From: Thermoproteaceae archaeon
GTDB taxonomy: Archaea; Thermoproteota; Thermoprotei; Thermoproteales; Thermoproteaceae
Direction: 5' to 3'
Assembly: GCA_020833025.1 (NCBI GenBank)
Contig: JAJHRB010000052.1
Location: forward strand, 1-10,663
Length of the DNA stretch: 10,663 nucleotides
Part shown: positions 1 through 10,663 of the stretch, piece after piece
Layout: each line of letters starts with the position of its first letter
Position numbering within the stretch: position 1 is the first letter of the stretch
The notes under the pieces: generated by a model
The model's input: the letters and a program-made list of their open reading frames with translations, nothing else
Databases searched by the model: none
What the model was told of the DNA's origin: nothing
Made by a program: the position numbers and the translations under genes

Positions 1-2
1 AC

Positions 3-488
3 GTGACGGCATATCACTGCGTTCAGAACACAAGGCCGGTTATCGTCAAGTGTACCGACAGGGGTCTTGACATCAACGTTGGCGTTTCTGTCGTCGAGAG
101 CGTGCCGCTCAGGCCGTGGTCGTGGTCATGTGTGCTCGCCAGGGGCGGCTGCATTAACTATCACGACTACGCTGCAGTTAGCGACGGCCTTGACGGCGAC
201 ATGCCGCAGCTCGTGCTGAGCTTTGGCAACGAGAGGGGCGATTTTGCCGGCTACATGCCCGCGCCGTGGTACAGCGACAGCCCGGCCGGCCGCAGGGTCA
301 GGTACACGTCGTACGACTACTTCGACCGCAGGCTCGTGAACATCGAGACGAAAATTGCCGGCAGGGTGCTCGCCAGCGTTACCGGCGTTGACGGCAGGAC
401 GTACTTGATGATGGCATACTACGCCCACGAGCCCGGAAGGGTGCTGGCAAGGCCTGGATACTCCGGCTCGAACGTCTACGTGATGTGA
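3..488 (+). CDS. Hypothetical beta-rich protein, probably 5'-truncated by the window edge
   Basis: Frame open from the window start to TGA at 486-488; GC3-rich codons (GAC, GGC, TAC, GTG); Tyr/Gly/Val-rich; T5 tract at 505-509 just downstream. Confidence 0.75.
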   Translation: MTAYHCVQNTRPVIVKCTDRGLDINVGVSVVESVPLRPWSWSCVLARGGCINYHDYAAVSDGLDGDMPQLVLSFGNERGDFAGYMPAPWYSDSPAGRRVRYTSYDYFDRRLVNIETKIAGRVLASVTGVDGRTYLMMAYYAHEPGRVLARPGYSGSNVYVM

Positions 489-805
489 GCCAGGGGCAGG
501 CCGATTTTTGCGGCCACGACCGCCACGAACGTGCCCAGATAGGTTGCAATATCTCTTGCACTTTTGTCCTCCCACGCCTGGTATACAACGTACAGTGCAG
601 TGATTAGCGCGGATGCAAGCATGCCGGCCGGGGAGTGGAAGCACGCAAGCGCTGCGACTGTAGCCGCGGCGGCGTGACCAAGATCGGTGGCCTTAATTCC
701 CTGTGCTTGCAGCGCCCTGTACTTACGCCTTAACGCCAGCCTTGCGAGTGCGAGCGCTCCCGCGAGGGCGATGAGCGCCAGGTCGAGCAGCACGACACGC
801 GGCAC
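476..805 (-). CDS. Small multi-pass membrane protein (105-109 aa)
   Basis: Hydrophobic segments VVLLDLALIALAGALALA, AAAATVAALACF, MLASALITALYVVY and IATYLGTFVAVVAA, with basic RRKYR after the first. The in-frame GTG at 793 fits the TATA at 814-819 better than the GTG at 805. Confidence 0.75.
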   Translation of the reverse strand: MPRVVLLDLALIALAGALALARLALRRKYRALQAQGIKATDLGHAAAATVAALACFHSPAGMLASALITALYVVYQAWEDKSARDIATYLGTFVAVVAAKIGLPLAHIT

Positions 806-812
806 GCAGGGA

Positions 813-820
813 GTTTAAAT
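813..820. promoter_or_regulatory. Bidirectional archaeal TATA box (GTTTAAAT)
   Basis: TTTAAA at 814-819 lies 26 nt from GTG 840 (+) and 26 nt from GTG 793 (-); flanked by a 10-bp inverted repeat (800-809 / 831-840). Confidence 0.7.
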
Positions 821-839
821 CTGCCACGAGCTGCGTGCC

Positions 840-1778
840 GTGCAGCAGCTCGTGGTCTACCACACGAACGTCACGAGTTACTCCATCATTGCCAGGGAGA
901 TATGCCGCGTTAACGGGTGGCAGTGCAGGTACATCACCGGCGACTTGTGGCTCCCGATTGACGTCGATGCGTTCATCGGCTCGCAGTTTGACGCCGTCAA
1001 GTGGCACAACGTGAGGCCAAGGCGCTTCGCTTACATCACCGTCGAGGGGCAGTTCGACAGCGCGCACGCGTGGAGGGCGCTGAGAGACCTGTGTGACAGA
1101 ATTACGTGCTACGTGCCAACGCAGTGGGGAAGGGCAGTGCTTGAGGCACACGGCGTTAAGGTTCAGGACGTGATACCGCACGCCCTGCCGGAGCCGGTTC
1201 CCGGCCCGCCGGGGGAGAGGCCACTTGACGTGATTTACCTCAACGCGCACTACCGCTTTTACTGCCGCGACAAGTTTGGGCTGTTCAGCCAGTGCGACAG
1301 CTGCGAGCGGAAGGGCTGGCGGTTCTGGCCCGAGATCAGGAAGGCATTTCCGGGCTCGCTTGGGTTTGTGAGTAACTGCGAGGTAGTTGACGGCGCTGTT
1401 GGGTTCAAGGCAAAGGATATCGTTGATGTCTACAGGCTGCTGGCGCTCGGCAGGGTGTATGCACATCTAAGCACTCACGAGGGCTTTGGCCTCAACCCGC
1501 TGATGGCAGCGGCAATGGGAGCTGCCGTGGTGTCGTGGGACATAGTGCCGGTGCGCGAGGTGCTGCCTGAGGCGGTGCTCGTGCCGGCGCAGAGCTGTGC
1601 TACTTGCTACCTGTACCCGCACGACATCATGGCGAGGGGCACGTTCACCGCGTGCTGGGGGAGCGTTGGCGAGTTCATTGAGGCCGTGAGGAGAGCGCTC
1701 GGGTCGCCGCCGGCCGTGGACTGGCAGGCAGTAAGGCAGAAGTTCAGCGCCCAGAAGCTCTACGCCAGGCTCGCGTAG
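840..1778 (+). CDS. Glycosyltransferase, GT-B fold, GT4-like (viral)
   Basis: 312 aa with VPTQWGRAVLEAHG..VIPHAL, ERKG and HLSTHEGFGLNPLMAAAMGAAVVSWD..VREVL, the GT4 donor-binding region. The second Glu of the E-x7-E motif is replaced by Met. Confidence 0.9.
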   Translation: MQQLVVYHTNVTSYSIIAREICRVNGWQCRYITGDLWLPIDVDAFIGSQFDAVKWHNVRPRRFAYITVEGQFDSAHAWRALRDLCDRITCYVPTQWGRAVLEAHGVKVQDVIPHALPEPVPGPPGERPLDVIYLNAHYRFYCRDKFGLFSQCDSCERKGWRFWPEIRKAFPGSLGFVSNCEVVDGAVGFKAKDIVDVYRLLALGRVYAHLSTHEGFGLNPLMAAAMGAAVVSWDIVPVREVLPEAVLVPAQSCATCYLYPHDIMARGTFTACWGSVGEFIEAVRRALGSPPAVDWQAVRQKFSAQKLYARLA

Positions 1779-1786
1779 GCACAAGA

Positions 1787-1794
1787 GATAAATA
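1787..1794 (+). promoter_or_regulatory. Putative TATA box (GATAAATA)
   Basis: AT-rich octamer in a 35-nt intergenic gap, 26-27 nt upstream of GTG 1814; purine-rich BRE-like flank. Confidence 0.55.
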
Positions 1795-1813
1795 GTGCGG
1801 TGCCGGGCGTGCC

Positions 1814-2113
1814 GTGAGCCAGTACTCGTACCCAATACCGCCAATATTTCCGGCGTGGATGTGCACCATCGGCTATGCCGTTGGCATTGACTACTACGGC
1901 AATCCGGTCAGCCCGGGCAGGCTTAACGTCAGGTTCAACCGGACTGTCAACCCGCCGCTGACTGTACTTGCCGTGTGGGACGTGCCGGTCGCTGCCGGGT
2001 ACTTCTACGGACGGCACGAATTGGGCTACTACACCGACCCAATTATCATCGTGCCGGACTACCCGGTTTACGGAATAGGATTTAACGTTAGAGTAGTGTC
2101 GGGATCGGCATGA
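1814..2113 (+). CDS. Hypothetical 99-aa Tyr/Pro/Val-rich beta protein (possible minor virion protein)
   Basis: TATA upstream; stop overlaps the next start (ATGA at 2110-2113). The virion role is inference from composition and neighbourhood. Confidence 0.75.
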   Translation: MSQYSYPIPPIFPAWMCTIGYAVGIDYYGNPVSPGRLNVRFNRTVNPPLTVLAVWDVPVAAGYFYGRHELGYYTDPIIIVPDYPVYGIGFNVRVVSGSA

Positions 2114-2433
2114 TAGTCAATCCAGTTCCGTGGATGCAGTCGTGTGCGTTCTGGACGTACAGAGCTGGATATCGTCGCATACGTACTGGCTTTGATACTA
2201 CATACCAGGAGTATATTCCGTTTTACTACGAGACGCTGCCAAATGGAGTTAAACTTACATGGAGCTGCGTGCCAGGCACTTGCAGCACTTACGATAGCGG
2301 CAGTACTTATATCGCAGCAATTTCTAGCTGTTCCCCTACTCTCTGCACGCGGATTTACAGCAACCTCAGGATATACGGCTGGCCCGGCATCCAGTGGCAG
2401 CAAATATTCATCAACAATGTTGTAACTGCATAG
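2110..2433 (+). CDS. Hypothetical 107-aa aromatic/Cys-rich beta protein (possible adhesin or receptor-binding protein)
   Basis: ATGA coupling to the upstream gene; rich in Tyr/Trp/Thr/Ser with 5 Cys; about 48% GC with many A/T-ending codons. The function is inference. Confidence 0.7.
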   Translation: MIVNPVPWMQSCAFWTYRAGYRRIRTGFDTTYQEYIPFYYETLPNGVKLTWSCVPGTCSTYDSGSTYIAAISSCSPTLCTRIYSNLRIYGWPGIQWQQIFINNVVTA

Positions 2434-2440
2434 TGCCGCA

Positions 2441-2725
2441 CTATCTGGAATACGCAATCTCGCTGACGTCGTAAACAATTATCTCTATTCCGCCTGCCGT
2501 CGATATGCTCGATGCGTCTATCACGAATATTTCATAGCCGCCATACGTGGAAATGCTCGATGCGTCAACCACGGATATCTCGTAGCCGCCGTACGTGGCA
2601 ATGTACGACGCGTCCATCACGTCAATTACAAGCTCGACGTGCGGGTACACAATGTAAGAGGCATCAGCAACTGCAAGCTCGATGCCGCCTGCCGTTGATA
2701 TCGCGCTCGCGTCCGTGACCGCAAT
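2441..2725 (-). repeat. Intragenic tandem repeat, six units of ~48 nt / 16 aa
   Basis: Units at 2678-2725 IAVTDASAISTAGGIE; 2627-2677 LAVADASYIVYPHVELV; 2579-2626 IDVMDASYIATYGGYE; 2531-2578 ISVVDASSISTYGGYE; 2483-2530 IFVIDASSISTAGGIE; 2444-2482 IIVYDVSEIAYSR. Confidence 0.9.
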
Positions 2726-3862
2726 GCTGGCAATTGCCGGCGGGTAGATGGCCGGATGGAGGCTGAAGTACACCGCAGCGCCGGTGGGCACCGCCACCTC
2801 GGGCCTCAGCTCGAAGACAGCCGGCAGTACTTCGGGGTACCGGTACGTCGGAATGTAGGCAAGCGCGTACACGGCGTAGACCTCAGGCATCAGCTCAAAC
2901 GCCGAAGGCAGGACGCGGCCGGCAGCAATGTAGGGCGCGATGCCGGAGACCAGCGGGCGCGTCGTGACTGCTGCAACGTGCGGCACCAGCGTGAATGCCG
3001 CCTCGGGCCTCCGCGCTGCCGCGTGGGCCTCCGGCCTCAGCTCTGACAGGAGCTCCGGCGCCATGATGATGTACGGCACGTAGTACGGCGCGTAGTTGAA
3101 GTACACGAACAGCGCCGGCACGACGCTGGACGCTGCTGCCGGCAGCGCTGTGACGGCAGGGTAGTACGGCACGTACGGCAGCGCGTAGGGCGGGAGCACT
3201 GCTGGCACTGTCACGGCGTATGCACACGCGTTTCCAATCAGCGCATCAACTAGTGCCGGCCCTGCAAAAAATGCAATGCCCGGCACCGCCATGCCCAGAA
3301 ATCCTGCAATCACGCCCGCCAGGCTGCCCCTCGCGAACGACTCGACTGCCTTCCTCGCGCCGCGGCCGAACATAGGCAACCACTTGTACGCGAGGTACGC
3401 GCCGAAGGCGTACCGCAGCGCCGGAATTACAACGCGGCACATGATGTAGTACACCGCACCGAGCACTGACAGGGCCACTGACAGCGCTGCGTACGCCACC
3501 GGCACGAGGATGTACCTCACCGCGACGCATGCAATCACCACCGGCGCGGCTGCAAGCCCGGCAACCGCACCCGCTATCTGCTCGTGAAACGGCATCCAGG
3601 ATATCCTCCCGTCAACGAACTCCCTTACAGATTCAAACAGCGCCTCGGCCCACGACCAGAGCTGACCGCTCATATCAAGCAGCGCGCTCCTGGCGGCATC
3701 AATGACGTGCTGCAGGTACTGGTAGACGTGCGGGTAGGCGACAGTGAACGCTATGACGAAGCGCGGGTCTGCAACTTTCTTGACGTACGACGCGAGCGCC
3801 CTGACTCTCGCTGCCAGGAACTCGACGAAGCCTCCGATTACTGGCAGCGCGCCCCAGGCCAC
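2441..3862 (-). CDS. 473-aa membrane-anchored protein with C-terminal repeats (putative virion fibre/adhesin)
   Basis: N-terminal ~215 aa with long hydrophobic helices, a Pro/Tyr-rich linker, FELxPEV repeats and six ~16-aa IxVxDASxIxTxGGxE repeats; GTG start 3 nt after the upstream stop. Confidence 0.85.
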   Translation of the reverse strand: MAWGALPVIGGFVEFLAARVRALASYVKKVADPRFVIAFTVAYPHVYQYLQHVIDAARSALLDMSGQLWSWAEALFESVREFVDGRISWMPFHEQIAGAVAGLAAAPVVIACVAVRYILVPVAYAALSVALSVLGAVYYIMCRVVIPALRYAFGAYLAYKWLPMFGRGARKAVESFARGSLAGVIAGFLGMAVPGIAFFAGPALVDALIGNACAYAVTVPAVLPPYALPYVPYYPAVTALPAAASSVVPALFVYFNYAPYYVPYIIMAPELLSELRPEAHAAARRPEAAFTLVPHVAAVTTRPLVSGIAPYIAAGRVLPSAFELMPEVYAVYALAYIPTYRYPEVLPAVFELRPEVAVPTGAAVYFSLHPAIYPPAIASIAVTDASAISTAGGIELAVADASYIVYPHVELVIDVMDASYIATYGGYEISVVDASSISTYGGYEIFVIDASSISTAGGIEIIVYDVSEIAYSR

Positions 3863-3865
3863 AAG

Positions 3866-4099
3866 CTACCCCAGCAGCTCTCCGAGCTGGACTTTAAAGT
3901 AGATGAGGCCGTCCCTGTACCCCACGAACTCGATGCCGCTGCCTGCAAGCGCCCGCGTGAAGAACTCCCTGGCGTCAACGGCAACGAGCACGGCGTCTCC
4001 CTCGTACTCGACCCTCCTGACGAGACCGCCGGTCAGCAGCGCCGCGACCTCCGGCGGGAGCCTCTGCTTTAACCTCTCTCTAACTGCGGCATCGGCCAT
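3866..4099 (-). CDS. Hypothetical 77-aa alpha/beta protein
   Basis: Start reassigned from 4222 to ATG 4099 (MADAAVRERLKQRLPPE...): TGATG overlap with the upstream stop and TATATAA 26 nt upstream. Confidence 0.8.
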   Translation of the reverse strand: MADAAVRERLKQRLPPEVAALLTGGLVRRVEYEGDAVLVAVDAREFFTRALAGSGIEFVGYRDGLIYFKVQLGELLG

Positions 4100-4449
4100 C
4101 AGCTGAAGTACGCCCTGATTATATATCTCTTGCCAATTCTGACGGTGCCGGCAGGTATTCCAATGCTCTCGTCGCTGCACAGCTCTATGCCCCACTTCTG
4201 GCCGGCGGCGGGAAACACGCAAGTTGTGTGCAGTCTCTGCAGCGTGCCGCCGTTTGAGGAAAACTCGAAGAGCGTGTCAATTACCGTGTCGAGATAGTCA
4301 GCCGTGCGCACGAAATCGCACCCAGTTATCCTCGCGCTTGCAGTTACCGTCTGGCCGTTGACCACGACGTAGCTGTTTGCAGTTGACGCCTCGTTGCCCC
4401 GGTACGCAATGCACGCGTAATTGCCGGTGAGCACCTCTATCTTGGGCAT
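4099..4449 (-). CDS. Hypothetical 116-aa beta-rich protein (possible minor virion protein)
   Basis: Operon packing (3-nt gap upstream, 1-nt overlap downstream); alternating beta pattern; 4 Cys. Confidence 0.8.
   Translation of the reverse strand: MPKIEVLTGNYACIAYRGNEASTANSYVVVNGQTVTASARITGCDFVRTADYLDTVIDTLFEFSSNGGTLQRLHTTCVFPAAGQKWGIELCSDESIGIPAGTVRIGKRYIIRAYFS
4119..4127 (-). promoter_or_regulatory. Internal TATA box (GATATATAA on minus strand)
   Basis: Lies inside the 116-aa CDS, 26 nt upstream of ATG 4099. Confidence 0.5.
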
Positions 4450-4452
4450 GGC

Positions 4453-4752
4453 CTAGAAGTACAGCCTCAGCTGCACGTAAATGTAGTCACCGGCGCTGAC
4501 AGACACGTTCAGGTCGTCCACAAACGCCCGGACGACAGGAATGCCGTTCACGTCCCAGAAGAGTACGGCCCATAGCGTGCCGCCTGCCTGCGCGGTGCAG
4601 CCGGCAGACACCGCATTGTACCTGCCGTCCACGCCGTAGTCCTTCCTCACGTCTGCGGTGTCGCACAGCGTTACCGTGGACGTGAGGAAGCCCACCTTTA
4701 CCGTCATGCTCACGGTGATGTCGGCGAGACTCCTGGAGGCCGGGTAGCACAC
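4453..4752 (-). CDS. Hypothetical 99-aa beta-rich protein (possible minor virion protein)
   Basis: GTG start 2 nt after the upstream stop; beta-strand pattern ending VSVSAGDYIYVQLRLYF. Confidence 0.8.
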   Translation of the reverse strand: MCYPASRSLADITVSMTVKVGFLTSTVTLCDTADVRKDYGVDGRYNAVSAGCTAQAGGTLWAVLFWDVNGIPVVRAFVDDLNVSVSAGDYIYVQLRLYF

Positions 4753-4754
4753 GG

Positions 4755-4925
4755 CTACGCCTTACTGCCCTGCCTTCTTGCCTTGAGGCACTCCTCGACT
4801 GCCCGCTCTAGCAGCTGCCTGTCAGCGTTGTATGTCTGTTTGGGCCTGCAGTCTCCATCCAGCGTCACGACGCCCACCTCAACTCTTTCAACCCTTTCGG
4901 GCAGTTTCACGCAGCCGGCAGGCAC
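4755..4925 (-). CDS. Hypothetical 56-aa protein
   Basis: Start reassigned from 5003 to the in-frame GTG 4925 (MPAGCVKLPERVERVEVGVVTLDGDCRPKQ...), 5 nt after the GT stop and 27-28 nt from TTATATA at 4953-4947. Confidence 0.65.
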   Translation of the reverse strand: MPAGCVKLPERVERVEVGVVTLDGDCRPKQTYNADRQLLERAVEECLKARRQGSKA

Positions 4926-4930
4926 GTGCC

Positions 4931-5845
4931 TCAGTGCAGCAGCTCGTATATAAGCGTTCTCAGGAAGTTGTAGTGAGGCCTCGGCACGAGCGGCCTGTCG
5001 CACGGCCTCTCAAGCGCTCTGTGCAGCGCCTCGACGTATTCCTGCGGGCTCCACGCCCTGTACTCTTCATACACGTCGTCTCTCGGGCCCCTGTAGTATG
5101 CCACGTCGTAGTAATTGACTGAATGCACGCACGGATGTGCAAGCACGTCCCAGAACGCCTCGTGGCGGACGGTCACCAGGTTCATGCCCATTGCGAGCGC
5201 CTCCCTCTGGAACAGCCCGAAGCCCTCGCCGGAGCTCAGCGACGCGAACGTGCCGTAGTTCGCCATGAGCGAGTACAGCTCCTGCTTGCCGGTTCTCGCC
5301 AGTCTCTTCACTCCGAGCATCTCAAGCCTCCTGTTAAGCTCTGCAGCATAGGCGTCCGGCACCTCGTCACGGTAGAACGCGTCGAGCACCTCGCGGGCGA
5401 GCTCAAGCGTGCTCAGCGCCCACGGCATCCACTTCCGCGGGTAGTTACCGGCAATGTACACTGCCCTCCTGTTCCGGCCTGCCATGACTAGCGGCGGCAC
5501 TATTTCGTGCGGCACGATGTAATCCACGTGCACGTCGCTCTCCTCCATCCACTGTCTCGCCGCAAGCGACGGCACTATGCTGAGCCCGCAGCCGCACTTC
5601 CTCGCCCTCCTGCGCCCTAGAGACGTGAGAATGCCCTCGACAATCCAGTAACACACTCTGTGCGCTGCCCTTATCTTGCACGCAGCCTCGAAGCCGGCGT
5701 TCGGCGGGCCGATGATCACAACAACGTCGTAACTAGCAAACGGCCTGACCTGAAGCGCGAGCTCCCCGCCAACGCGCTCGGCAATAAGTTGTGCCTGCTC
5801 CATGACGCTCGTGGCAGCCACCGTGGGGATGACTGCAGCCTTCAC
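4931..5845 (-). CDS. Glycosyltransferase, GT-B fold, GT4-like (viral)
   Basis: Motifs VVIIGP, IVPSLAARQWM..YIVPHEI, YIAGNYPRK and SLSSGEGFGLFQREALAMG with intact E-x7-E. Start moved from TTG 5863 to GTG 5845 (MKAAVIP), 29 nt from TTTAATAC. Confidence 0.9.
   Translation of the reverse strand: MKAAVIPTVAATSVMEQAQLIAERVGGELALQVRPFASYDVVVIIGPPNAGFEAACKIRAAHRVCYWIVEGILTSLGRRRARKCGCGLSIVPSLAARQWMEESDVHVDYIVPHEIVPPLVMAGRNRRAVYIAGNYPRKWMPWALSTLELAREVLDAFYRDEVPDAYAAELNRRLEMLGVKRLARTGKQELYSLMANYGTFASLSSGEGFGLFQREALAMGMNLVTVRHEAFWDVLAHPCVHSVNYYDVAYYRGPRDDVYEEYRAWSPQEYVEALHRALERPCDRPLVPRPHYNFLRTLIYELLH
4947..4953 (-). promoter_or_regulatory. Internal TATA box (TTATATA on minus strand)
   Basis: Lies in the last codons of the second glycosyltransferase, 28 nt upstream of GTG 4925. 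Confidence 0.5.
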
Positions 5846-5866
5846 GTCACGGCGGGAGCGCAACGC

Positions 5867-5874
5867 GTATTAAA
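5867..5874 (-). promoter_or_regulatory. TATA box (TTTAATAC on minus strand)
   Basis: In the 113-nt divergent intergenic region, 29 nt upstream of GTG 5845. Confidence 0.6.
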
Positions 5875-5924
5875 CGTGCGCTCCGGGCTGCAGCCTGCCC
5901 TACCGCGAAATTCCCGGCGACGCG

Positions 5925-5951
5925 CTAATGTATATATCGTGCTGCCGGCAG
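5925..5951 (+). promoter_or_regulatory. Promoter, copy 1 of the CTAAYGTATATATCKTRCTGCCGG motif
   Basis: TATATATC at 5931-5938, 28 nt before ATG 5959; 21/24 nt identical to 7521-7544. Confidence 0.8.
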
Positions 5952-5958
5952 TGCTGCG

Positions 5959-6384
5959 ATGGTAGGGAGAAGGAGAGTATACAGGCCGTACAGCAAGGAA
6001 AAAATAAAGACGGCGCTGTACAACGTCATCACCGCCAGGATGGGCGCCGCCGGGACGGAGTCAATACTGCTGCAGCTGCACGCCCTAAATTACTCAACGC
6101 TTGCAGCAGAGGCGTGGGATAAATACGGGAAGCTCGCCAGCGACGTGTTCAATGAATTGAAACCGGTGTCCGGGCTTACAGGAACGAGGCTCGCCGGGCT
6201 TAGGGCAATGGTGGGCGCCGCGATAAAGCTGCACAAGATGTGCGAGCGCGGGAGGGTTGTAACGAGGGCAGAGGCAAGAGAGCACATCACCGCCGCGGGC
6301 AGGAGGGCAGGGCTGACTGACGACGAGATTGCCAGAGTGATTGACCGGCTCGTGTCCGTCGGCTCTTGCGAGAGGCTTGCCTAG
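5959..6384 (+). CDS. Putative major capsid protein, SIRV2-like fold (Adnaviria-type)
   Basis: 141 aa, all-helical; basic N-terminus (GRRRVYRPYSKEKIK); KxxLYxxxxxxMG...Q...NY segment, GLTGTRLA helix-turn and C-terminal GLTDDEIARVIDRL. These match the layout of rudivirus/lipothrixvirus MCPs as I recall them. Own strong promoter and a T6 downstream. Not database-confirmed. Confidence 0.6.
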   Translation: MVGRRRVYRPYSKEKIKTALYNVITARMGAAGTESILLQLHALNYSTLAAEAWDKYGKLASDVFNELKPVSGLTGTRLAGLRAMVGAAIKLHKMCERGRVVTRAEAREHITAAGRRAGLTDDEIARVIDRLVSVGSCERLA

Positions 6385-6773
6385 TGCGCCTCTCTTAGCG
6401 TTTCCAGCAGCAGCCTCCTGAGAAACTCCTCCACTTTTTTCCTGCCTCTCGACTCTGCCGTGACGAGATAGTTGTGCGTGTTCTGCACGTCCAGCCTCAT
6501 GAACTCAATGCAGTCAATGGCAAACCACCACTTCTTCTTTTCCGTGACTGCCCTCCCGTACTTGTGGAAGAACATCCTTATTGCAGCCCTTACATTCTCC
6601 CAGCGCAGGTACCGCGCGAGCCTCAGTCTCAGCAGCCGCGTCGAGAACACCAGCGCCCTCCTCTCCGGCGCTATCACCCTGCCGCAGCGCACTGACACCA
6701 GCGTTCTAATTGCGTGGTACGCCAAGTATGTCTCTGGGCTCCAGCGGTAGTACCACGCCTTTCTCTTCCGCAC
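6381..6773 (-). CDS. Basic 130-aa protein, possible winged-helix DNA-binding protein
   Basis: Very Arg/Lys-rich; helix-helix then beta hairpin pattern (FSTRLLRLRLARYLRWENVRAAIRMFFHKYGRAVTEKKKWWFAID); GTG start 4 nt after the upstream stop. Confidence 0.7.
   Translation of the reverse strand: MRKRKAWYYRWSPETYLAYHAIRTLVSVRCGRVIAPERRALVFSTRLLRLRLARYLRWENVRAAIRMFFHKYGRAVTEKKKWWFAIDCIEFMRLDVQNTHNYLVTAESRGRKKVEEFLRRLLLETLREAH
6435..6440 (+). terminator. Oligo-T (T6) putative terminator of the MCP-like gene
   Basis: CCACTTTTTT about 50 nt after the stop, inside the convergent ORF; T6 runs are rare in this window. Confidence 0.45.
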
Positions 6774-6777
6774 CTGC

Positions 6778-7224
6778 TCACTCCTGCAGCAGTCTCTTGA
6801 GCTCTTCTGGCAGCTCCTTGATGGCAGCCTCCCTTCTTGGCTGCTCGTGCTGTGGCTGCACTCTCACCTGCTGCATGTACGACTGGAGTGCCTCTCTCAG
6901 CATGGCTGCAAGCAGGTCTCCCTCGGCGCTGCCCGCAACTCTCGGCGCGAGCCTGGCGACTATGTCTCTCACCCTCCTGTAGCGCTCGTCAATTCTGGCC
7001 ACGTAGCTCGATATTACCGAGATGACAATGTCTTCCGGCAGGACTGAAAAGAGAGTGTCCATCACTGCCATTTTCGTGTCGCTGTCTGCGTACATCAGGA
7101 ATAACGCAAAGCGCTCTATCATGTCTGCCAGCCGTTCTGCCGTCTCTGCGTCCTCCACCTTGATGCGCGACATGATGACCGCCCTAATTAGCGATGCCGG
7201 ACGCTCCCTCCTCTGTGCCGTCAT
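6778..7224 (-). CDS. Hypothetical 148-aa alpha-helical protein
   Basis: ATGA overlap with the upstream gene at 7221-7224; helical amphipathic pattern. Confidence 0.8.
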   Translation of the reverse strand: MTAQRRERPASLIRAVIMSRIKVEDAETAERLADMIERFALFLMYADSDTKMAVMDTLFSVLPEDIVISVISSYVARIDERYRRVRDIVARLAPRVAGSAEGDLLAAMLREALQSYMQQVRVQPQHEQPRREAAIKELPEELKRLLQE

Positions 7225-7505
7225 TGCTGCTGCTTCTTGCGTATCTTGATAACAATATAGCCCTTCATCCCCACTGCTCTCTCCTCAATTGACACGTCGA
7301 GCGCCTTGAACACGCGCGGGGGTATGCCCTGCCTGACTCTTTCGACTAGCTGCTCAACGGGAATGATTATGCCGACAAGCCCCCTGTCCACGTGTATCCA
7401 CGGGTCGAGGCCTATGCGCTGCAGGTCGCCTGCCAGCTTTCTCAGCACTTCCATTACCTTCTCTCTCTCTGCTTGCGTGAAGTCTGGCGCCGGGCTGGCG
7501 CTCAC
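7221..7505 (-). CDS. Hypothetical 94-aa alpha/beta protein
   Basis: GTG start 27 nt from TATATA (7532-7527, minus strand); first gene of a three-gene coupled operon. Confidence 0.8.
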   Translation of the reverse strand: MSASPAPDFTQAEREKVMEVLRKLAGDLQRIGLDPWIHVDRGLVGIIIPVEQLVERVRQGIPPRVFKALDVSIEERAVGMKGYIVIKIRKKQQQ

Positions 7506-7520
7506 GGCTGAACGCTGTTA

Positions 7521-7547
7521 CTAACGTATATATCTTACTGCCGGGAG
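7521..7547. promoter_or_regulatory. Promoter, copy 2 of the CTAAYGTATATATCKTRCTGCCGG motif; TATA usable in both directions
   Basis: TATATATC at 7527-7534, 29 nt before ATG 7556 (+) and 27 nt before GTG 7505 (-). Confidence 0.8.
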
Positions 7548-7555
7548 CAGCGTCG

Positions 7556-7777
7556 ATGGCGTCGCCCGCGCCAACGCTAGCGGAGCAGTTCCAGGCGCTG
7601 ATGTCAGCCGTGCTGAACGCAGTGGTGCAGCTCGCGCAGGGAATTGCCAGCTTCATTGCCCAGAACGCGCCGCTGTTTGCCATGATACTTGGCTTTGCGG
7701 TACTCGGTGTTATCGTGATTAGATACGGCAGGAGGTTCATCGACGCAATAGTCGGCTGGGTCAGAGAGCTGTTCTAA
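7556..7777 (+). CDS. 73-aa single-TM protein, putative major envelope/coat protein
   Basis: Amphipathic N-terminal helix, TM segment PLFAMILGFAVLGVIVI, basic RYGRR, and C-terminal amphipathic helix FIDAIVGWVRELF. Monocistronic, with the MCP-type promoter and a terminator. Confidence 0.8.
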   Translation: MASPAPTLAEQFQALMSAVLNAVVQLAQGIASFIAQNAPLFAMILGFAVLGVIVIRYGRRFIDAIVGWVRELF

Positions 7778-7780
7778 GCA

Positions 7781-7816
7781 GGGCGCGCGCCCAAGCTCAA
7801 AGCCCACCTCTTTTTT
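7781..7816 (+). terminator. GC palindrome plus T6 terminator
   Basis: Perfect 12-bp palindrome GGGCGCGCGCCC at 7781-7792, 3 nt after the stop, then CTCTTTTTT with T6 at 7811-7816. Confidence 0.6.
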
Positions 7817-7838
7817 ACGCCCTTCCTCTCATCAGCAC

Positions 7839-7994
7839 GTGCCCAGAAGGCTCAAGTCTCCGGTCAGAGAATTTGAGAAAGAGCTCGGAGCACTGCTTGG
7901 AGATGTGACAAGACTTGGGCCGAAGGCCGTGCTGACGACTTCAATCAAGCTGCTACGCGAGCTTGAGAGGGCGCTCCTCGGGGAGGAGGAGTGA
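7839..7994 (+). CDS. Hypothetical 51-aa helical protein (absent from the ORF track)
   Basis: Manual translation MPRRLKSPVREFEKELGALLGDVTRLGPKAVLTTSIKLLRELERALLGEEE; fills the gap; GTGA overlap with 7991; TTTTTA 27 nt upstream. Confidence 0.7.
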   Translation: MPRRLKSPVREFEKELGALLGDVTRLGPKAVLTTSIKLLRELERALLGEEE

Positions 7995-8497
7995 GGTGCT
8001 ACAGGCTGCCGCCAGCGAGGATAGGCACGGCTGACTACACGCCCTACCTCTGCACGCCGGACATGCAGTTCTGGAGGACGCTGTCAAGACTGGCAGTCGT
8101 GTCGAGAGTCACGGCAAGAGCGAATCTGCTCTGGCTTGAGCGCCCAATGCTCTACCCCGTGCTCGACAGAGTGCTCGGAGCGAGAACGTTAAGGCAGTGG
8201 CTTGAGGCGTGGCGCGAGATAAGGCGCTACGGCCTGCCGCCAGTGAGGGAGGCGTACTCGCTGGGAAGCGCACTGCAAGCGCTGACGCCAGAGCCTGAAG
8301 TCTTCGAGAAGCTGTTTAACGTGCAGGTAGCGGGCGCGCCGCCGTTGACGGACATGACAAGACACGTGATCAGACTGCTCGACGGGCTGGTGGGCGCCAT
8401 GGGGCCTGAAGGCGCATACAGGGCGCTGTACGCCGCGGTGTACTGCGCGATGAAGCTTGCACTCGGGCCGCCGCTGAGGCCGAAAAAACGCAAATAA
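7991..8497 (+). CDS. Hypothetical 168-aa protein
   Basis: GGAGGAGG Shine-Dalgarno-like sequence before the GTG; GTGA coupling; helical pattern; basic C-terminal RPKKRK. Confidence 0.8.
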   Translation: MRCYRLPPARIGTADYTPYLCTPDMQFWRTLSRLAVVSRVTARANLLWLERPMLYPVLDRVLGARTLRQWLEAWREIRRYGLPPVREAYSLGSALQALTPEPEVFEKLFNVQVAGAPPLTDMTRHVIRLLDGLVGAMGPEGAYRALYAAVYCAMKLALGPPLRPKKRK

Positions 8498-8517
8498 AGT
8501 GCCGTGCAGCGTCGCGC

Positions 8518-8685
8518 ATGGTCAAGTACAAGTTCAGCGTGCTGCTGCCGGTAAGGCTGCCGCCGGAAGCGGTCAGAGAGCTCAAGGCGGCAGTCGAGAC
8601 GTGGCTGAAGCAGCACGAGGAGGAGTGCAGGGCTGAAGTGGAAGTGAAGGTGAGAAAGGTCAGGAAGCAGGAAGGAGAGACATGA
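8518..8685 (+). CDS. Hypothetical 55-aa beta-alpha-beta protein (absent from the ORF track)
   Basis: Manual translation MVKYKFSVLLPVRLPPEAVRELKAAVETWLKQHEEECRAEVEVKVRKVRKQEGET; AAATAAA 26 nt upstream; ATGA overlap with 8682. Confidence 0.75.
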   Translation: MVKYKFSVLLPVRLPPEAVRELKAAVETWLKQHEEECRAEVEVKVRKVRKQEGET

Positions 8686-8885
8686 GCGAGAGAAAGAAGG
8701 AGGCAGTCGAGTTCGAAGTGGAAGTGCCGTACCTCATAGACGGACAGTGCCTGGAGCGGCTGGAGAAGTACCTCGCAAATAAAGTGAGACAGCTAGTGCT
8801 CAAGTACGGCGCCGCCGAGGTTAGAATCGAAATGGAAGTAGAGCTGAGGAAGAGGTCGTGGCTTGAGGGGCTGTTCAGCCTCTAG
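8682..8885 (+). CDS. Hypothetical 67-aa beta-alpha-beta protein
   Basis: GAAGGAGAG upstream; ATGA coupling; T5 tract at 8922-8926 downstream. Confidence 0.75.
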   Translation: MSERKKEAVEFEVEVPYLIDGQCLERLEKYLANKVRQLVLKYGAAEVRIEMEVELRKRSWLEGLFSL

Positions 8886-9306
8886 CGCAGCCGCCCCTCA
8901 GCTCCACTCTCTCAACTCCAATTTTTCCTGCAAGCTCTATCATTCTCAGCAGCCCGGGGCACATCAGCTCGGGCCTGCACTTAAGGCCGCCGCCTCCGGA
9001 CACGCGCCTCCTGCCGCTGAACAGCACGTTAATGTCAATACCGCGTCTAATTCTCTCATAGTTGATGCACTCGCGCCTGGCATCAGAACCCAGCAGGTAC
9101 TGCAGTAACGGGACGTACTGCAGCTCCGGCTCCGGCTCGACCCACACCGCCACGTGCACGCCCCTGCTTGAGCTCAGGCGGTAGACAAAGCCAGCAGCAG
9201 AGTAGCCAAACGCCTCAAGCACGCGCCTTGCGGCCAGCTCGTACTCCTCCCGGCAGAGCGGCAGCGTGACTTCATCAACGTCAACCAGCAAGACGCCGGC
9301 ATTCAT
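8875..9306 (-). CDS. Minimal archaeo-eukaryotic primase (AEP)-like catalytic domain, 143 aa
   Basis: Start reassigned from 9507 to ATG 9306, 4 nt after the upstream stop. Motif I LLVDVD, motif II SSSRGVH and motif III candidate LLGSD occur in AEP order. Confidence 0.7.
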   Translation of the reverse strand: MNAGVLLVDVDEVTLPLCREEYELAARRVLEAFGYSAAGFVYRLSSSRGVHVAVWVEPEPELQYVPLLQYLLGSDARRECINYERIRRGIDINVLFSGRRRVSGGGGLKCRPELMCPGLLRMIELAGKIGVERVELRGGCARG

Positions 9307-9310
9307 GCCC

Positions 9311-10027
9311 TCACTCTCTTTCCCTGAGGTACTCAATTCTGCCCACAGGCCGCCACACCTCGCCGCGCTCAATGCACTCCCGCTCGCGCCCTGGCCCGCA
9401 CGCCCCGGGGTACGACAGCGCCACGAGACTGCAAATGCTCCGGCAGTCCTCAAGCGCGCAGGTGCCCGGCTCCATGCGGCAGTAAAGGCCGTACAGCACT
9501 CCGGCACAGTACTTGTAGCCGGTCACGGTGTAGCCAATGTACTCCGGCTCGACGCCAAACGCGCCAGAAATGACATCCATCACGGTGCCAGCCGCTGCAC
9601 TCAACAGTTCCGACAGCCTCCTCGCGACGTGCCTGGCGACCTCCGGCACGATGGCTCTAAGCCACCGGTAGTACGGCCTCGTGTAGCCGGCATAGTACGC
9701 CTCAAGTATTGGACGCCACGGGCGCCAGTATGCCGTCAGCTCCTCCGGGTACAGCGCCTCGCAGTAAAGCACGTCAACGTAGAGATTGCCCGTGGCCCAC
9801 CTGCGGGCACAATACTCGAAGACGCCGGTGGCACAGGCCGATATGTAGCGCAACTGCTTGACAAACTCGCCGGCAGGCCCTGCCAGCATGAATATCCACT
9901 CGCGGCGGTAGGGGTGGTAGAAGATGTAAATTCTTGTCAGCGTTAACGAATCAACAACGTAGACAGAGCGCCTCGTGTAGTGAACGCGTATCTTACCCTC
10001 TCCCGCCGGAATCTCGACGTAACTCAT
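9311..10027 (-). CDS. Hypothetical 238-aa Tyr/Cys-rich protein
   Basis: ATGA overlap with the cas4-like stop; 25 Tyr and 10 Cys by manual count; middle gene of the Cas4-AEP operon. Confidence 0.8.
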   Translation of the reverse strand: MSYVEIPAGEGKIRVHYTRRSVYVVDSLTLTRIYIFYHPYRREWIFMLAGPAGEFVKQLRYISACATGVFEYCARRWATGNLYVDVLYCEALYPEELTAYWRPWRPILEAYYAGYTRPYYRWLRAIVPEVARHVARRLSELLSAAAGTVMDVISGAFGVEPEYIGYTVTGYKYCAGVLYGLYCRMEPGTCALEDCRSICSLVALSYPGACGPGRERECIERGEVWRPVGRIEYLRERE

Positions 10028-10653
10028 GCCAGCCTCTCGTTAAGACACTCGTGTCGGTACGGGCAGTACGAGCAGTACGGGCCGCGCTCCGGCTCCGGCG
10101 GGACGCCGGAGGCAAGAGCGTACGACAAGTCCTCATATCTTGCCAGCGCCTCTCTTGCCAGCGCGCGACGGCTCTCATCGTTCAGCGTCACGTGAAAGAC
10201 AGAGTAGCGCTGCAGGTCAAACGACATCATTAACAGCACGCCGATGTCCGCGCCGGCAATTGCGGCGTAGTACTTGAGCTGCCGCTCGTGCCAGCGGAAG
10301 AACGGATTTGACGCGTTGGGCGTTTTCGTGAACTTGAGCTCAATGACAGCCCTAACGCCGCTGCAGTCGCAGAGCATGTCCACAACGCCTGACAGCTGGC
10401 CCAGCGATACCCTCACCTCACTCTCACACTTACAGCCGTGCCTCTCGAACACCGGGGGCGCGTGACGGGCAAACCAGTGGTGCATGTCAGTCCCGCGGAG
10501 CACGAGGTCAGTAATCTCCTTCCCGCGCGTGATGGCACAGTACGCGTACCGGAGGCACGACGCAACGTGGCTGATGCCCGGCTCCAGGCGCTTCACGCCG
10601 TACATGCACTTCAGCTCCTCTACTGCCTTGAGGATGTGCCCGATAGCGTCCAT
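10024..10653 (-). CDS. cas4: Stand-alone Cas4-like PD-(D/E)xK exonuclease with Fe-S cluster signature
   Basis: N-terminal Cys (ISHVASCLRYAY), GTDMH, ESEV..SGVVD..VIELK, QLKYY and C-terminal CSYCPYRHEC give the four-Cys Cas4/AddB layout. No CRISPR array or cas1 in the window. Confidence 0.9.
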   Translation of the reverse strand: MDAIGHILKAVEELKCMYGVKRLEPGISHVASCLRYAYCAITRGKEITDLVLRGTDMHHWFARHAPPVFERHGCKCESEVRVSLGQLSGVVDMLCDCSGVRAVIELKFTKTPNASNPFFRWHERQLKYYAAIAGADIGVLLMMSFDLQRYSVFHVTLNDESRRALAREALARYEDLSYALASGVPPEPERGPYCSYCPYRHECLNERLA

Positions 10654-10663
10654 GCCGGAAAAC

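Follow-up and report, generated by a model that had tools for sequence, protein, structure and literature searches.

An incomplete genome of a probable GC-rich virus of the realm Adnaviria in the assembly of a Pyrobaculum-like archaeon

The stretch of DNA considered here (the window, positions 1 to 10,663) is the entire contig JAJHRB010000052.1, hereafter C16, which has 10,663 bp and a guanine plus cytosine (GC) content of 60.3%. It was binned into a Pyrobaculum-like metagenome-assembled genome (MAG) of 126 contigs (1.56 Mb, 62.6% GC, 94% complete). The tetranucleotide correlation of C16 with the genome mean is 0.847, the lowest value among the contigs of the MAG of at least 5 kb, and Pfam, tRNA and Rfam scans reveal no host gene, tRNA gene or RNA-family match in the window. 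C16 is a fragment of a virus, not of the chromosome. Together with a second contig of the same bin, C79, it appears to make up the incomplete genome of an uncultivated double-stranded DNA (dsDNA) virus of the realm Adnaviria whose host is a Pyrobaculum-like archaeon; we estimate the probability of this reading at about three in four. A prediction made earlier from the sequence (the original prediction) had proposed a filamentous archaeal virus with an unusual combination of genes. That proposal is now supported by a capsid protein candidate with a fold of the SIRV2 type, by a peptidase of the family PF25658, by a perfect host spacer flanked by a protospacer-adjacent motif (PAM) and by the absence of its 473-aa protein and of PF25658 from the other genomes searched.

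The window carries about 20 genes in alternating strand blocks, which were picked out by the GC content at codon positions (third-position GC, GC3, of 0.70-0.84). A TATA-like box lies about 25-30 nt upstream of most starts, and neighbouring genes share 4-nt overlaps. Two metagenome contigs, L004 (Ga0080004_1108130) and L003 (OFEJ01005694), are syntenic with window positions 2365-6924 at 73-78% nucleotide identity. The ratio of nonsynonymous to synonymous substitution rates (dN/dS) against L004 is 0.08-0.31 across seven genes, which indicates that the genes are real and constrained. The TATA boxes, the tight overlaps, the lack of housekeeping genes and the GC content of about 60% had all been described correctly in the original prediction. 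The features of the window are as follows (aa, amino acids; ORF, open reading frame; MCP, major capsid protein).

3-488, plus strand: chymotrypsin-like serine protease (PF25658 FV_peptidase, Pfam E 4.2e-14), of which the C-terminal 161 aa are present.
840-1778, plus strand: glycosyltransferase 1 (GT1; GT-B fold, GT4-like); phrog_4356 3.6e-11, PF13692 24.8 bits, TTTAAA box at about -27.
1814-2113, plus strand: 99-aa protein with its own TATA box; GC3 0.70, without a family match.
2441-3862, minus strand: 473-aa membrane protein with several predicted transmembrane segments; dN/dS 0.18 against L004.
3866-4222, minus strand: small conserved ORF of at most 118 aa, true start probably internal; 68-75% identity in L003/L004, dN/dS 0.18.
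4099-4449, minus strand: 116-aa protein; 59-63% identity in relatives, dN/dS 0.25.
4453-4752, minus strand: 99-aa protein; 55-59% identity in relatives, GC3 0.84.
4755-5003, minus strand: 82-aa conserved ORF overlapping the end of the second glycosyltransferase gene; 75-79% identity in relatives.
4931-5863, minus strand: glycosyltransferase 2 (GT2; GT4-like), a distant paralog of GT1; phrog_4356 1.3e-6, 85% identity in L004, dN/dS 0.08.
5925-5951, plus strand: promoter motif (CTAATGTATATATC...CTGCCGG) upstream of the candidate MCP gene, judged by its position relative to the ATG.
5959-6384, plus strand: candidate MCP p141, 141 aa, pI 10.1; SIRV2-type fold, dN/dS 0.085 against L004.
6381-6773, minus strand: p130, a very basic 130-aa protein, pI 10.9; 61% identity in L004, no family or PDB match.
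6778-7224, minus strand: p148, a 148-aa helical protein.
7221-7505, minus strand: 94-aa protein, transcribed divergently from a shared TATATA region.
7521-7547, plus strand: second copy of the MCP-type promoter motif, 85% identical to the copy at 5925-5951.
7556-7777, plus strand: 73-aa single-pass membrane protein (transmembrane segment 30-60); phrog_9875 2.6e-5, promoter shared with the candidate MCP gene.
7991-8497, plus strand: p168, a conserved basic helical protein of 168 aa; 7 relatives, all of 168 aa, 67-92% identity.
8518-9108, plus strand: tight operon of three small ORFs with 55, 67 and 81 aa.
9311-10027, minus strand: p238, a Cys/Tyr-rich protein of 238 aa; no archaeo-eukaryotic primase (AEP) by any test run.
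10024-10653, minus strand: complete Cas4-like PD-(D/E)XK nuclease, 209 aa; PF12705, PF01930, phrog_1706, TIGR00372.
10474-10519, plus strand: protospacer (10477-10519) with 5' CCA PAM; 43/43 match to a spacer on contig C47.
10472-10663, no strand: 192-bp overlap with the end of C79, 190 bases identical.

The protein p141 has no sequence match in PDB or Pfam, and its only relatives among 1.84 billion representative proteins are two metagenome proteins with 83% and 46% identity. The basic N-terminal arm is kept in the 46%-identity relative. An AlphaFold2 (AF2) model of p141, with a pLDDT of 78, has a basic, weakly defined helix at the N-terminus and after it a long helix and a compact bundle of helices. 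Foldseek against PDB put the SIRV2 capsid protein at rank 1 (probability 0.82, TM 0.46/0.50), SSRV1 fourth and AFV1 ORF140 thirteenth. VIA-align, which searches 48,161 representative PDB chains exhaustively and is independent of Foldseek, returned capsid proteins of filamentous archaeal viruses at all of ranks 1-5, with 79-121 residues aligned. These are AFV1 ORF140 (Z 8.2, root-mean-square deviation (rmsd) 4.8, 102 residues aligned), SSRV1 (Z 7.8, rmsd 5.7, 111 aligned), SFV1 (Z 7.1, rmsd 3.9, 102 aligned), the C-domain of the Yellowstone SIRV (SIRV-YNP) coat protein (Z 7.0, rmsd 3.0, 79 of its 83 residues) and AFV1 5w7g_B (Z 6.6, rmsd 4.5, 121 aligned). AFV1 ORF132, SIFV and PFV2 follow at ranks 8, 13 and 30, the last with Z 5.1. 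A Foldseek search of BFVD with the same model gave no adnavirus among the matches listed. Five top places all taken by adnavirus MCPs would be very hard to obtain by chance. The structural comparison thus points to p141 as a candidate MCP of SIRV2-type fold, in line with the MCP-like helical protein of the original prediction. The realm Adnaviria is defined by the MCP fold (summaries of the international virus-taxonomy committee, ICTV). Because the absolute Z is moderate, the likeness of p141 to this fold is read from the ranking and not from the score.

No paralog of p141 was found in the joined 14.8 kb of C16 and C79, an incomplete genome, by hhalign and hidden Markov model (HMM) searches over all six frames, and a single visible MCP had also been anticipated. 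The strong TATATA promoter motif of the candidate MCP gene recurs, 85% identical, before the gene for the 73-aa membrane protein. The co-regulation of the two genes proposed earlier agrees with these near-identical motifs at 5925-5951 and 7521-7547; the 73-aa protein is probably co-expressed with the MCP and is a candidate component of an envelope or matrix.

The host connection comes from clustered regularly interspaced short palindromic repeats (CRISPR). Contig C47 of the same MAG carries a CRISPR array of 63 repeats and 62 spacers. Spacer 47 of 62 (C47:29273-29315, 43 nt) is identical to window positions 10477-10519, inside the gene of the Cas4-like nuclease, and CCA stands directly 5' of the protospacer. 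CCN is the usual PAM of type I-A systems in Crenarchaeota. Since the CRISPR RNA (crRNA) would in addition be antisense to Cas4 mRNA, targeting of type III is a further possibility. The repeat of the array, GAATCTCAAGAGAAGGATTGAAAG, fits direct-repeat family I of Pyrobaculum, with the crRNA handle ATTGAAAG (PMC3396285). Matching of CRISPR spacers had been put forward as a check on the original prediction, and it yielded this 43/43 match in the MAG's own array. No other spacer matches the element. Weak DNA matches in three related genomes lie outside CRISPR arrays and were treated as chance. The element does not belong to the chromosome, and the CRISPR array of the host targets it; the host is probably the Pyrobaculum-like archaeon of the MAG or a close strain.

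The same array also points elsewhere in the bin. Another of its spacers (C47:27824) matches contig C94, which has 70% GC, at 39 of 43 bases (16792-16830). C94 8947-9414 and C49 332-948 encode paralogs (38-43% identity) of a 245-aa protein of C79 with winged helix-turn-helix and ribbon-helix-helix (RHH) character, and C94/C49 may represent a second mobile element binned into this MAG. The 2.7-kb contig C6 is partly matched by two more spacers of the array, at 2023-2049 (27 nt, one mismatch) and at 2331-2348 (18 nt). C6 may be another target or a fragment of an array.

The right end of C16 (window 10472-10663) overlaps the end of C79 (4,316 bp) in reverse orientation, with 190 of 192 bases identical. 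The break between the two contigs lies 5 bp from the protospacer, and the assembly graph was probably split there by the 43-mer common to the CRISPR array and by strain variants. The joined sequence has 14,787 bp. Both of its ends are cut inside ORFs and it has neither inverted nor direct terminal repeats, so the true termini are missing and the genome is incomplete. The inverted terminal repeats that had been suggested as something to look for at the contig ends were accordingly not found. Circular closure from C79 to C16 was rejected, as the frame left open where C79 ends does not encode the N-terminus of the peptidase. Contigs C48 and C22, the next strongest compositional outliers, were not taken as parts of the virus: each is taken up almost wholly by one giant ORF, of 2,167 and 2,651 aa respectively, that continues past the contig ends, and has no compact viral gene set.

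The gene at the left end of C16 matches the Pfam family PF25658, 'putative filamentous viruses peptidase', with 53 bits against a gathering cut-off of 27. The contig end cuts off about 77 residues of the N-terminus; full-length relatives have 221-238 aa. Three residues, H82, D132 and S231, are invariant in 13 peptidase sequences and lie in the motifs TAxHC, DYA and GYSGS, that is, a triad of the chymotrypsin type. A profile of the peptidase against PDB retrieved only trypsins, with a non-significant E of 0.83; the trypsin link is by motif alone. PF25658 was present in 0 of 400 other Thermoproteota genomes sampled. Contigs of 20-40 kb carry more distant relatives of the peptidase (~47% identity), and some of these contigs come from MAGs with the names Thermofilum sp. 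and Pyrobaculum sp.; the group thus extends beyond one virus and may have larger genomes. Host contig C46 has, at 10680-10796 on the minus strand, a short ORF of 47 aa flanked by tRNA-Arg(CCG) and a gene for an aldo-keto reductase. This ORF is similar to the N-terminal part of the viral peptidase family (49% over 43 aa, E 0.005 against one member). The similarity may be due to chance or mark the remains of an ancient integration.

Two GT4 genes had been proposed, and GT-B glycosyltransferases are indeed encoded at 840-1778 (plus strand) and 4931-5863 (minus strand). Their Pfam matches (Glyco_trans_1_4 / Glycos_transf_1), 24.8 and 19.7 bits, are just under the gathering score of 27, and both match phrog_4356. 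GT1 and GT2 carry an EGFG motif and are 24% identical to each other (E 3e-6). The stand-alone Cas4 proposed earlier turned out to be a Cas4-like nuclease with all motifs. It scores 31.2 bits with PF12705 and 23.0 bits with PF01930, both above the cut-offs, and 1e-19 with phrog_1706. The RecB motifs D (DML), ELK and QxxxY (QLKYY) can be read in the translation, and the four cysteines of the Cas4 iron-sulphur cluster, one N-terminal and three in a C-terminal CX2CX5C (CSYCPYRHEC), are complete. Since its score with TIGR00372 (44.7 bits, E 1.3e-11) is below the equivalog cut-off of 65, the protein is called Cas4-like, and not a Cas4 of CRISPR adaptation. The AEP of the original prediction was not borne out: profile searches gave no Prim-Pol or primase-S signal on C16 or C79 and no primase Pfam match on any ORF, PF09250 has no match in the whole MAG, and PF01896 matches host contigs only.

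The 473-aa membrane protein has a Pro/Tyr-rich middle and four 16-aa repeats at its C-terminus (48-nt repeats at 2475-2717), and it is a candidate envelope or terminal-fibre protein. It has only 3 matches among 5.8 billion proteins and was found in 0 of 61 other Thermoproteales genomes; an identical protein is encoded on a 14,911-bp contig of another assembly. Next to its gene, window 2114-2370 is a stretch of 55% GC between the convergent genes for the 99-aa and 473-aa proteins. Homology to both L003 and L004 ends at about 2365-2371, although their contigs extend 44-59 nt further, and the stretch looks like a variable or recombination-prone spot. As to the remaining proteins of the window, the AF2 model of p168 was too poor for use (pLDDT 48), the ESM Atlas lookup of p141 and p238 was uninformative, and no paralogy was detectable for the two small proteins of the 4-kb region and p99a.

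C79 has 57% GC. It encodes a protein with a ParB_N domain (PF02195 26.7 bits; phrog_3264 1e-6), the 245-aa protein mentioned above (1249-1986), which ends in an RHH domain, a zinc-ribbon protein and five ORFs without assigned function, all on one strand and each behind a promoter of the CTTAAAAATTTCTC type. The RHH domain of the 245-aa protein is weakly closest to cell-division regulators of the CdrS/aCcr1 type (E 1.4e-4 and 5.8e-3, far below cut-offs), and it is conceivable that the virus encodes a regulator of the cell cycle. The gap separating the ParB-like gene from the Cas4-like gene contains a 33-nt direct repeat in two perfect copies (C79 3816-3848 and 3948-3980), each of which includes the palindrome CCGGTAACGCGTTACCGG; the copies might serve for ParB binding (as a parS-like site), as an operator or as an origin.

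Relatives of the element are scarce in the collections searched. Megablast and tblastn of the window and five of its proteins against a phage collection including SIRV2, SIFV and AFV1 gave no match. IMG/VR contains no relative for the 473-aa protein, for the Cas4-like nuclease or for the alignments of the MCP candidate, p168 and the peptidase, and the GTDB genome contigs yielded no match for the p168 and peptidase alignments. A search of the literature available to us found no description of a GC-rich adnavirus of Thermoproteales. To our knowledge, only PFV1, PFV2 and TTV1 have been described as filamentous viruses of Thermoproteales; all have about 45% GC and belong to one family.

The order Ligamenvirales (Rudiviridae, Ungulaviridae and Lipothrixviridae; SIRV2, SSRV1, AFV1, SFV1, SIFV) provides the best structural matches to p141, with Z 8.2-5.9 over nearly the full length. 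Only one MCP is detectable in the element, as in the rudiviruses, which also have several glycosyltransferases and a Cas4-like single-stranded DNA exonuclease. However, Ligamenvirales infect Sulfolobales and have genomes of about 32-34% GC, whereas the element has 60% GC and a Pyrobaculum host, and the tblastn search of the collection that includes SIRV2, SIFV and AFV1 revealed no sequence similarity in any gene. The rudivirus core consists of an MCP shared at the sequence level, a cassette of single-stranded DNA-binding protein (SSB), annealing ATPase and Cas4, a Holliday-junction resolvase and a methyltransferase, whereas the element has only the Cas4-like gene. Pfam and PHROG detect none of the other core genes in it, and an egress-pyramid gene was not recognised either. 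Ahmunviridae and Chiyouviridae resemble the element in being known from contigs only and in having been assigned by MCP fold and CRISPR spacers. Their hosts are Ca. Syntropharchaeia methanotrophs and Ca. Bathyarchaeales, respectively; the comparison with these two families is one of descriptions only. The element lies outside the described families by its gene content, its GC, its strand layout and the sequence of its capsid protein, and it probably represents a new lineage at the family level. The misfit to known gene sets claimed in the original prediction holds for Ligamenvirales, whose members in the phage collection give no tblastn match and whose rudivirus core is absent, while with respect to the tristromaviruses it holds only by the descriptions of GC, strand layout and MCP number.

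Several points weigh against the assignment of the element to a new lineage of Adnaviria. The virus is known here from its genes alone, and the recovered sequence stops short of the genome termini. None of the Foldseek E-values of p141 is significant, its model was built from an alignment of only three sequences, and a Z of 7-8 is moderate for a helical protein, so that the case lies in the exclusive ranking of adnavirus MCPs and not in any strong single score. A second MCP may be present in the missing sequence or among the ORFs that were not folded. PF25658 is absent from SIRV2, SIFV and AFV1, a full-length homolog of the peptidase matches no PHROG family, and PF25658 is tied to filamentous viruses by its family name. 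Finally, the element is set apart from PFV1, PFV2 and TTV1 by their descriptions, not by a comparison of proteomes.

The last point bears directly on the possibility that the element is a divergent member of Tristromaviridae (PFV1, PFV2, TTV1) and not a new lineage. These viruses share the host order with the element, are filamentous and have an MCP of the same fold, and the PFV2 MCP is among the structural matches of p141 with Z 5.1. Their gene set, like that of the element, includes virion membrane proteins, a glycosyltransferase and a large minor virion protein near the size of the 473-aa protein, and the membrane protein co-expressed with the capsid gene would fit them as well. The recoverable length of at least 14.8 kb, from an incomplete genome, is close to their 16-18 kb. 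Yet the GC content of 60.3% contrasts with about 45% in the family and 45-48% in the known Pyrobaculum viruses, and the element is arranged in five or more alternating strand blocks, whereas 38 of 39 genes of PFV2 are on one strand. Tristromaviridae have two paralogous MCPs (VP1/VP2) and the sheath protein VP3, while one MCP is detectable in the element, and p141 is structurally nearer the MCPs of Ligamenvirales (Z 7-8) than that of PFV2. No phmmer match to the PFV2 chains in PDB was found for p141, p168, p130 or p148, and relatives of the peptidase lie on contigs of 28-40 kb. Taken together, these differences make membership of Tristromaviridae improbable.

It might also be supposed that we are dealing with a temperate element, a Pyrobaculum provirus either integrated or maintained as an episome, whose junctions lie at or near the breaks of the assembly. 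It was binned with the host at a similar GC content (60.3% vs. 62.6%), the ParB_N protein, the two perfect 33-nt repeats and the RHH regulators would suit maintenance, the peptidase-like ORF of 47 aa lies beside tRNA-Arg on C46, and relatives occur on 28-40 kb contigs in the Thermofilum sp. and Pyrobaculum sp. MAGs. Nevertheless, neither C16 nor C79 has an integrase, a tRNA gene, an att-like match or a host gene, no copy was found in 61 other Thermoproteales or 400 sampled Thermoproteota genomes, and integration in that strain would turn the perfect, PAM-flanked spacer of the same MAG into a self-targeting one. The characterised adnaviruses are, moreover, all lytic and non-integrating (ICTV summaries), and we regard a provirus as quite unlikely. 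A plasmid or a defence/transfer island, with p141 resembling an MCP by chance, appears very improbable. ParB, RHH and Cas4-like genes are common on archaeal plasmids and the structural Z is within the range that helical bundles reach by chance, but genes for a replication initiator, for conjugation or for a partition ATPase were not found. The peptidase belongs to a family that takes its name from filamentous viruses and is absent from the cellular genomes searched, adnavirus MCPs fill all of the top five among 48,161 structural ranks, and the strong promoter common to the genes of the MCP and the membrane protein fits structural genes with high expression.

If the element is a virus of Adnaviria, its linear genome would be wrapped by dimers of p141, with their conserved basic N-terminal arms, to give a nucleoprotein filament of helical form; if there is truly only one MCP, the dimers would be homodimers, as in rudiviruses. 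The 73-aa and 473-aa membrane proteins could supply an envelope or terminal structures, and the glycosyltransferases might decorate virion proteins. The protease would process a structural or terminal protein, and the Cas4-like nuclease may resect DNA ends in replication or recombination. It is conceivable, though doubtful, that the virus is the first of a family of adnaviruses infecting Pyrobaculum and Thermofilum and combining one MCP and a small membrane protein co-expressed with it, a protease of the chymotrypsin type and a ParB-plus-repeat module for episomal carriage. If so, the protease would imply proteolytic maturation of a filamentous archaeal virion, which the ICTV summaries do not mention for adnaviruses. 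The ParB-plus-repeat module would then point to stable episomal carriage, as opposed to the purely lytic cycle of the characterised adnaviruses, and the host-like 60% GC would reflect long-term residence.

The finding concerns taxonomy and comparison and reveals no new mechanism. In practical terms, two viral contigs, C16 and C79, are wrongly binned into a public MAG. The virus, the host and the spacer would form a natural triplet for studying the type I-A/III CRISPR immunity of Pyrobaculum. The candidate capsid protein p141 would sit structurally between the Sulfolobales and Pyrobaculum branches. In general, a second, sequence-unrelated lineage would widen both the host range and the gene repertoire of Adnaviria.

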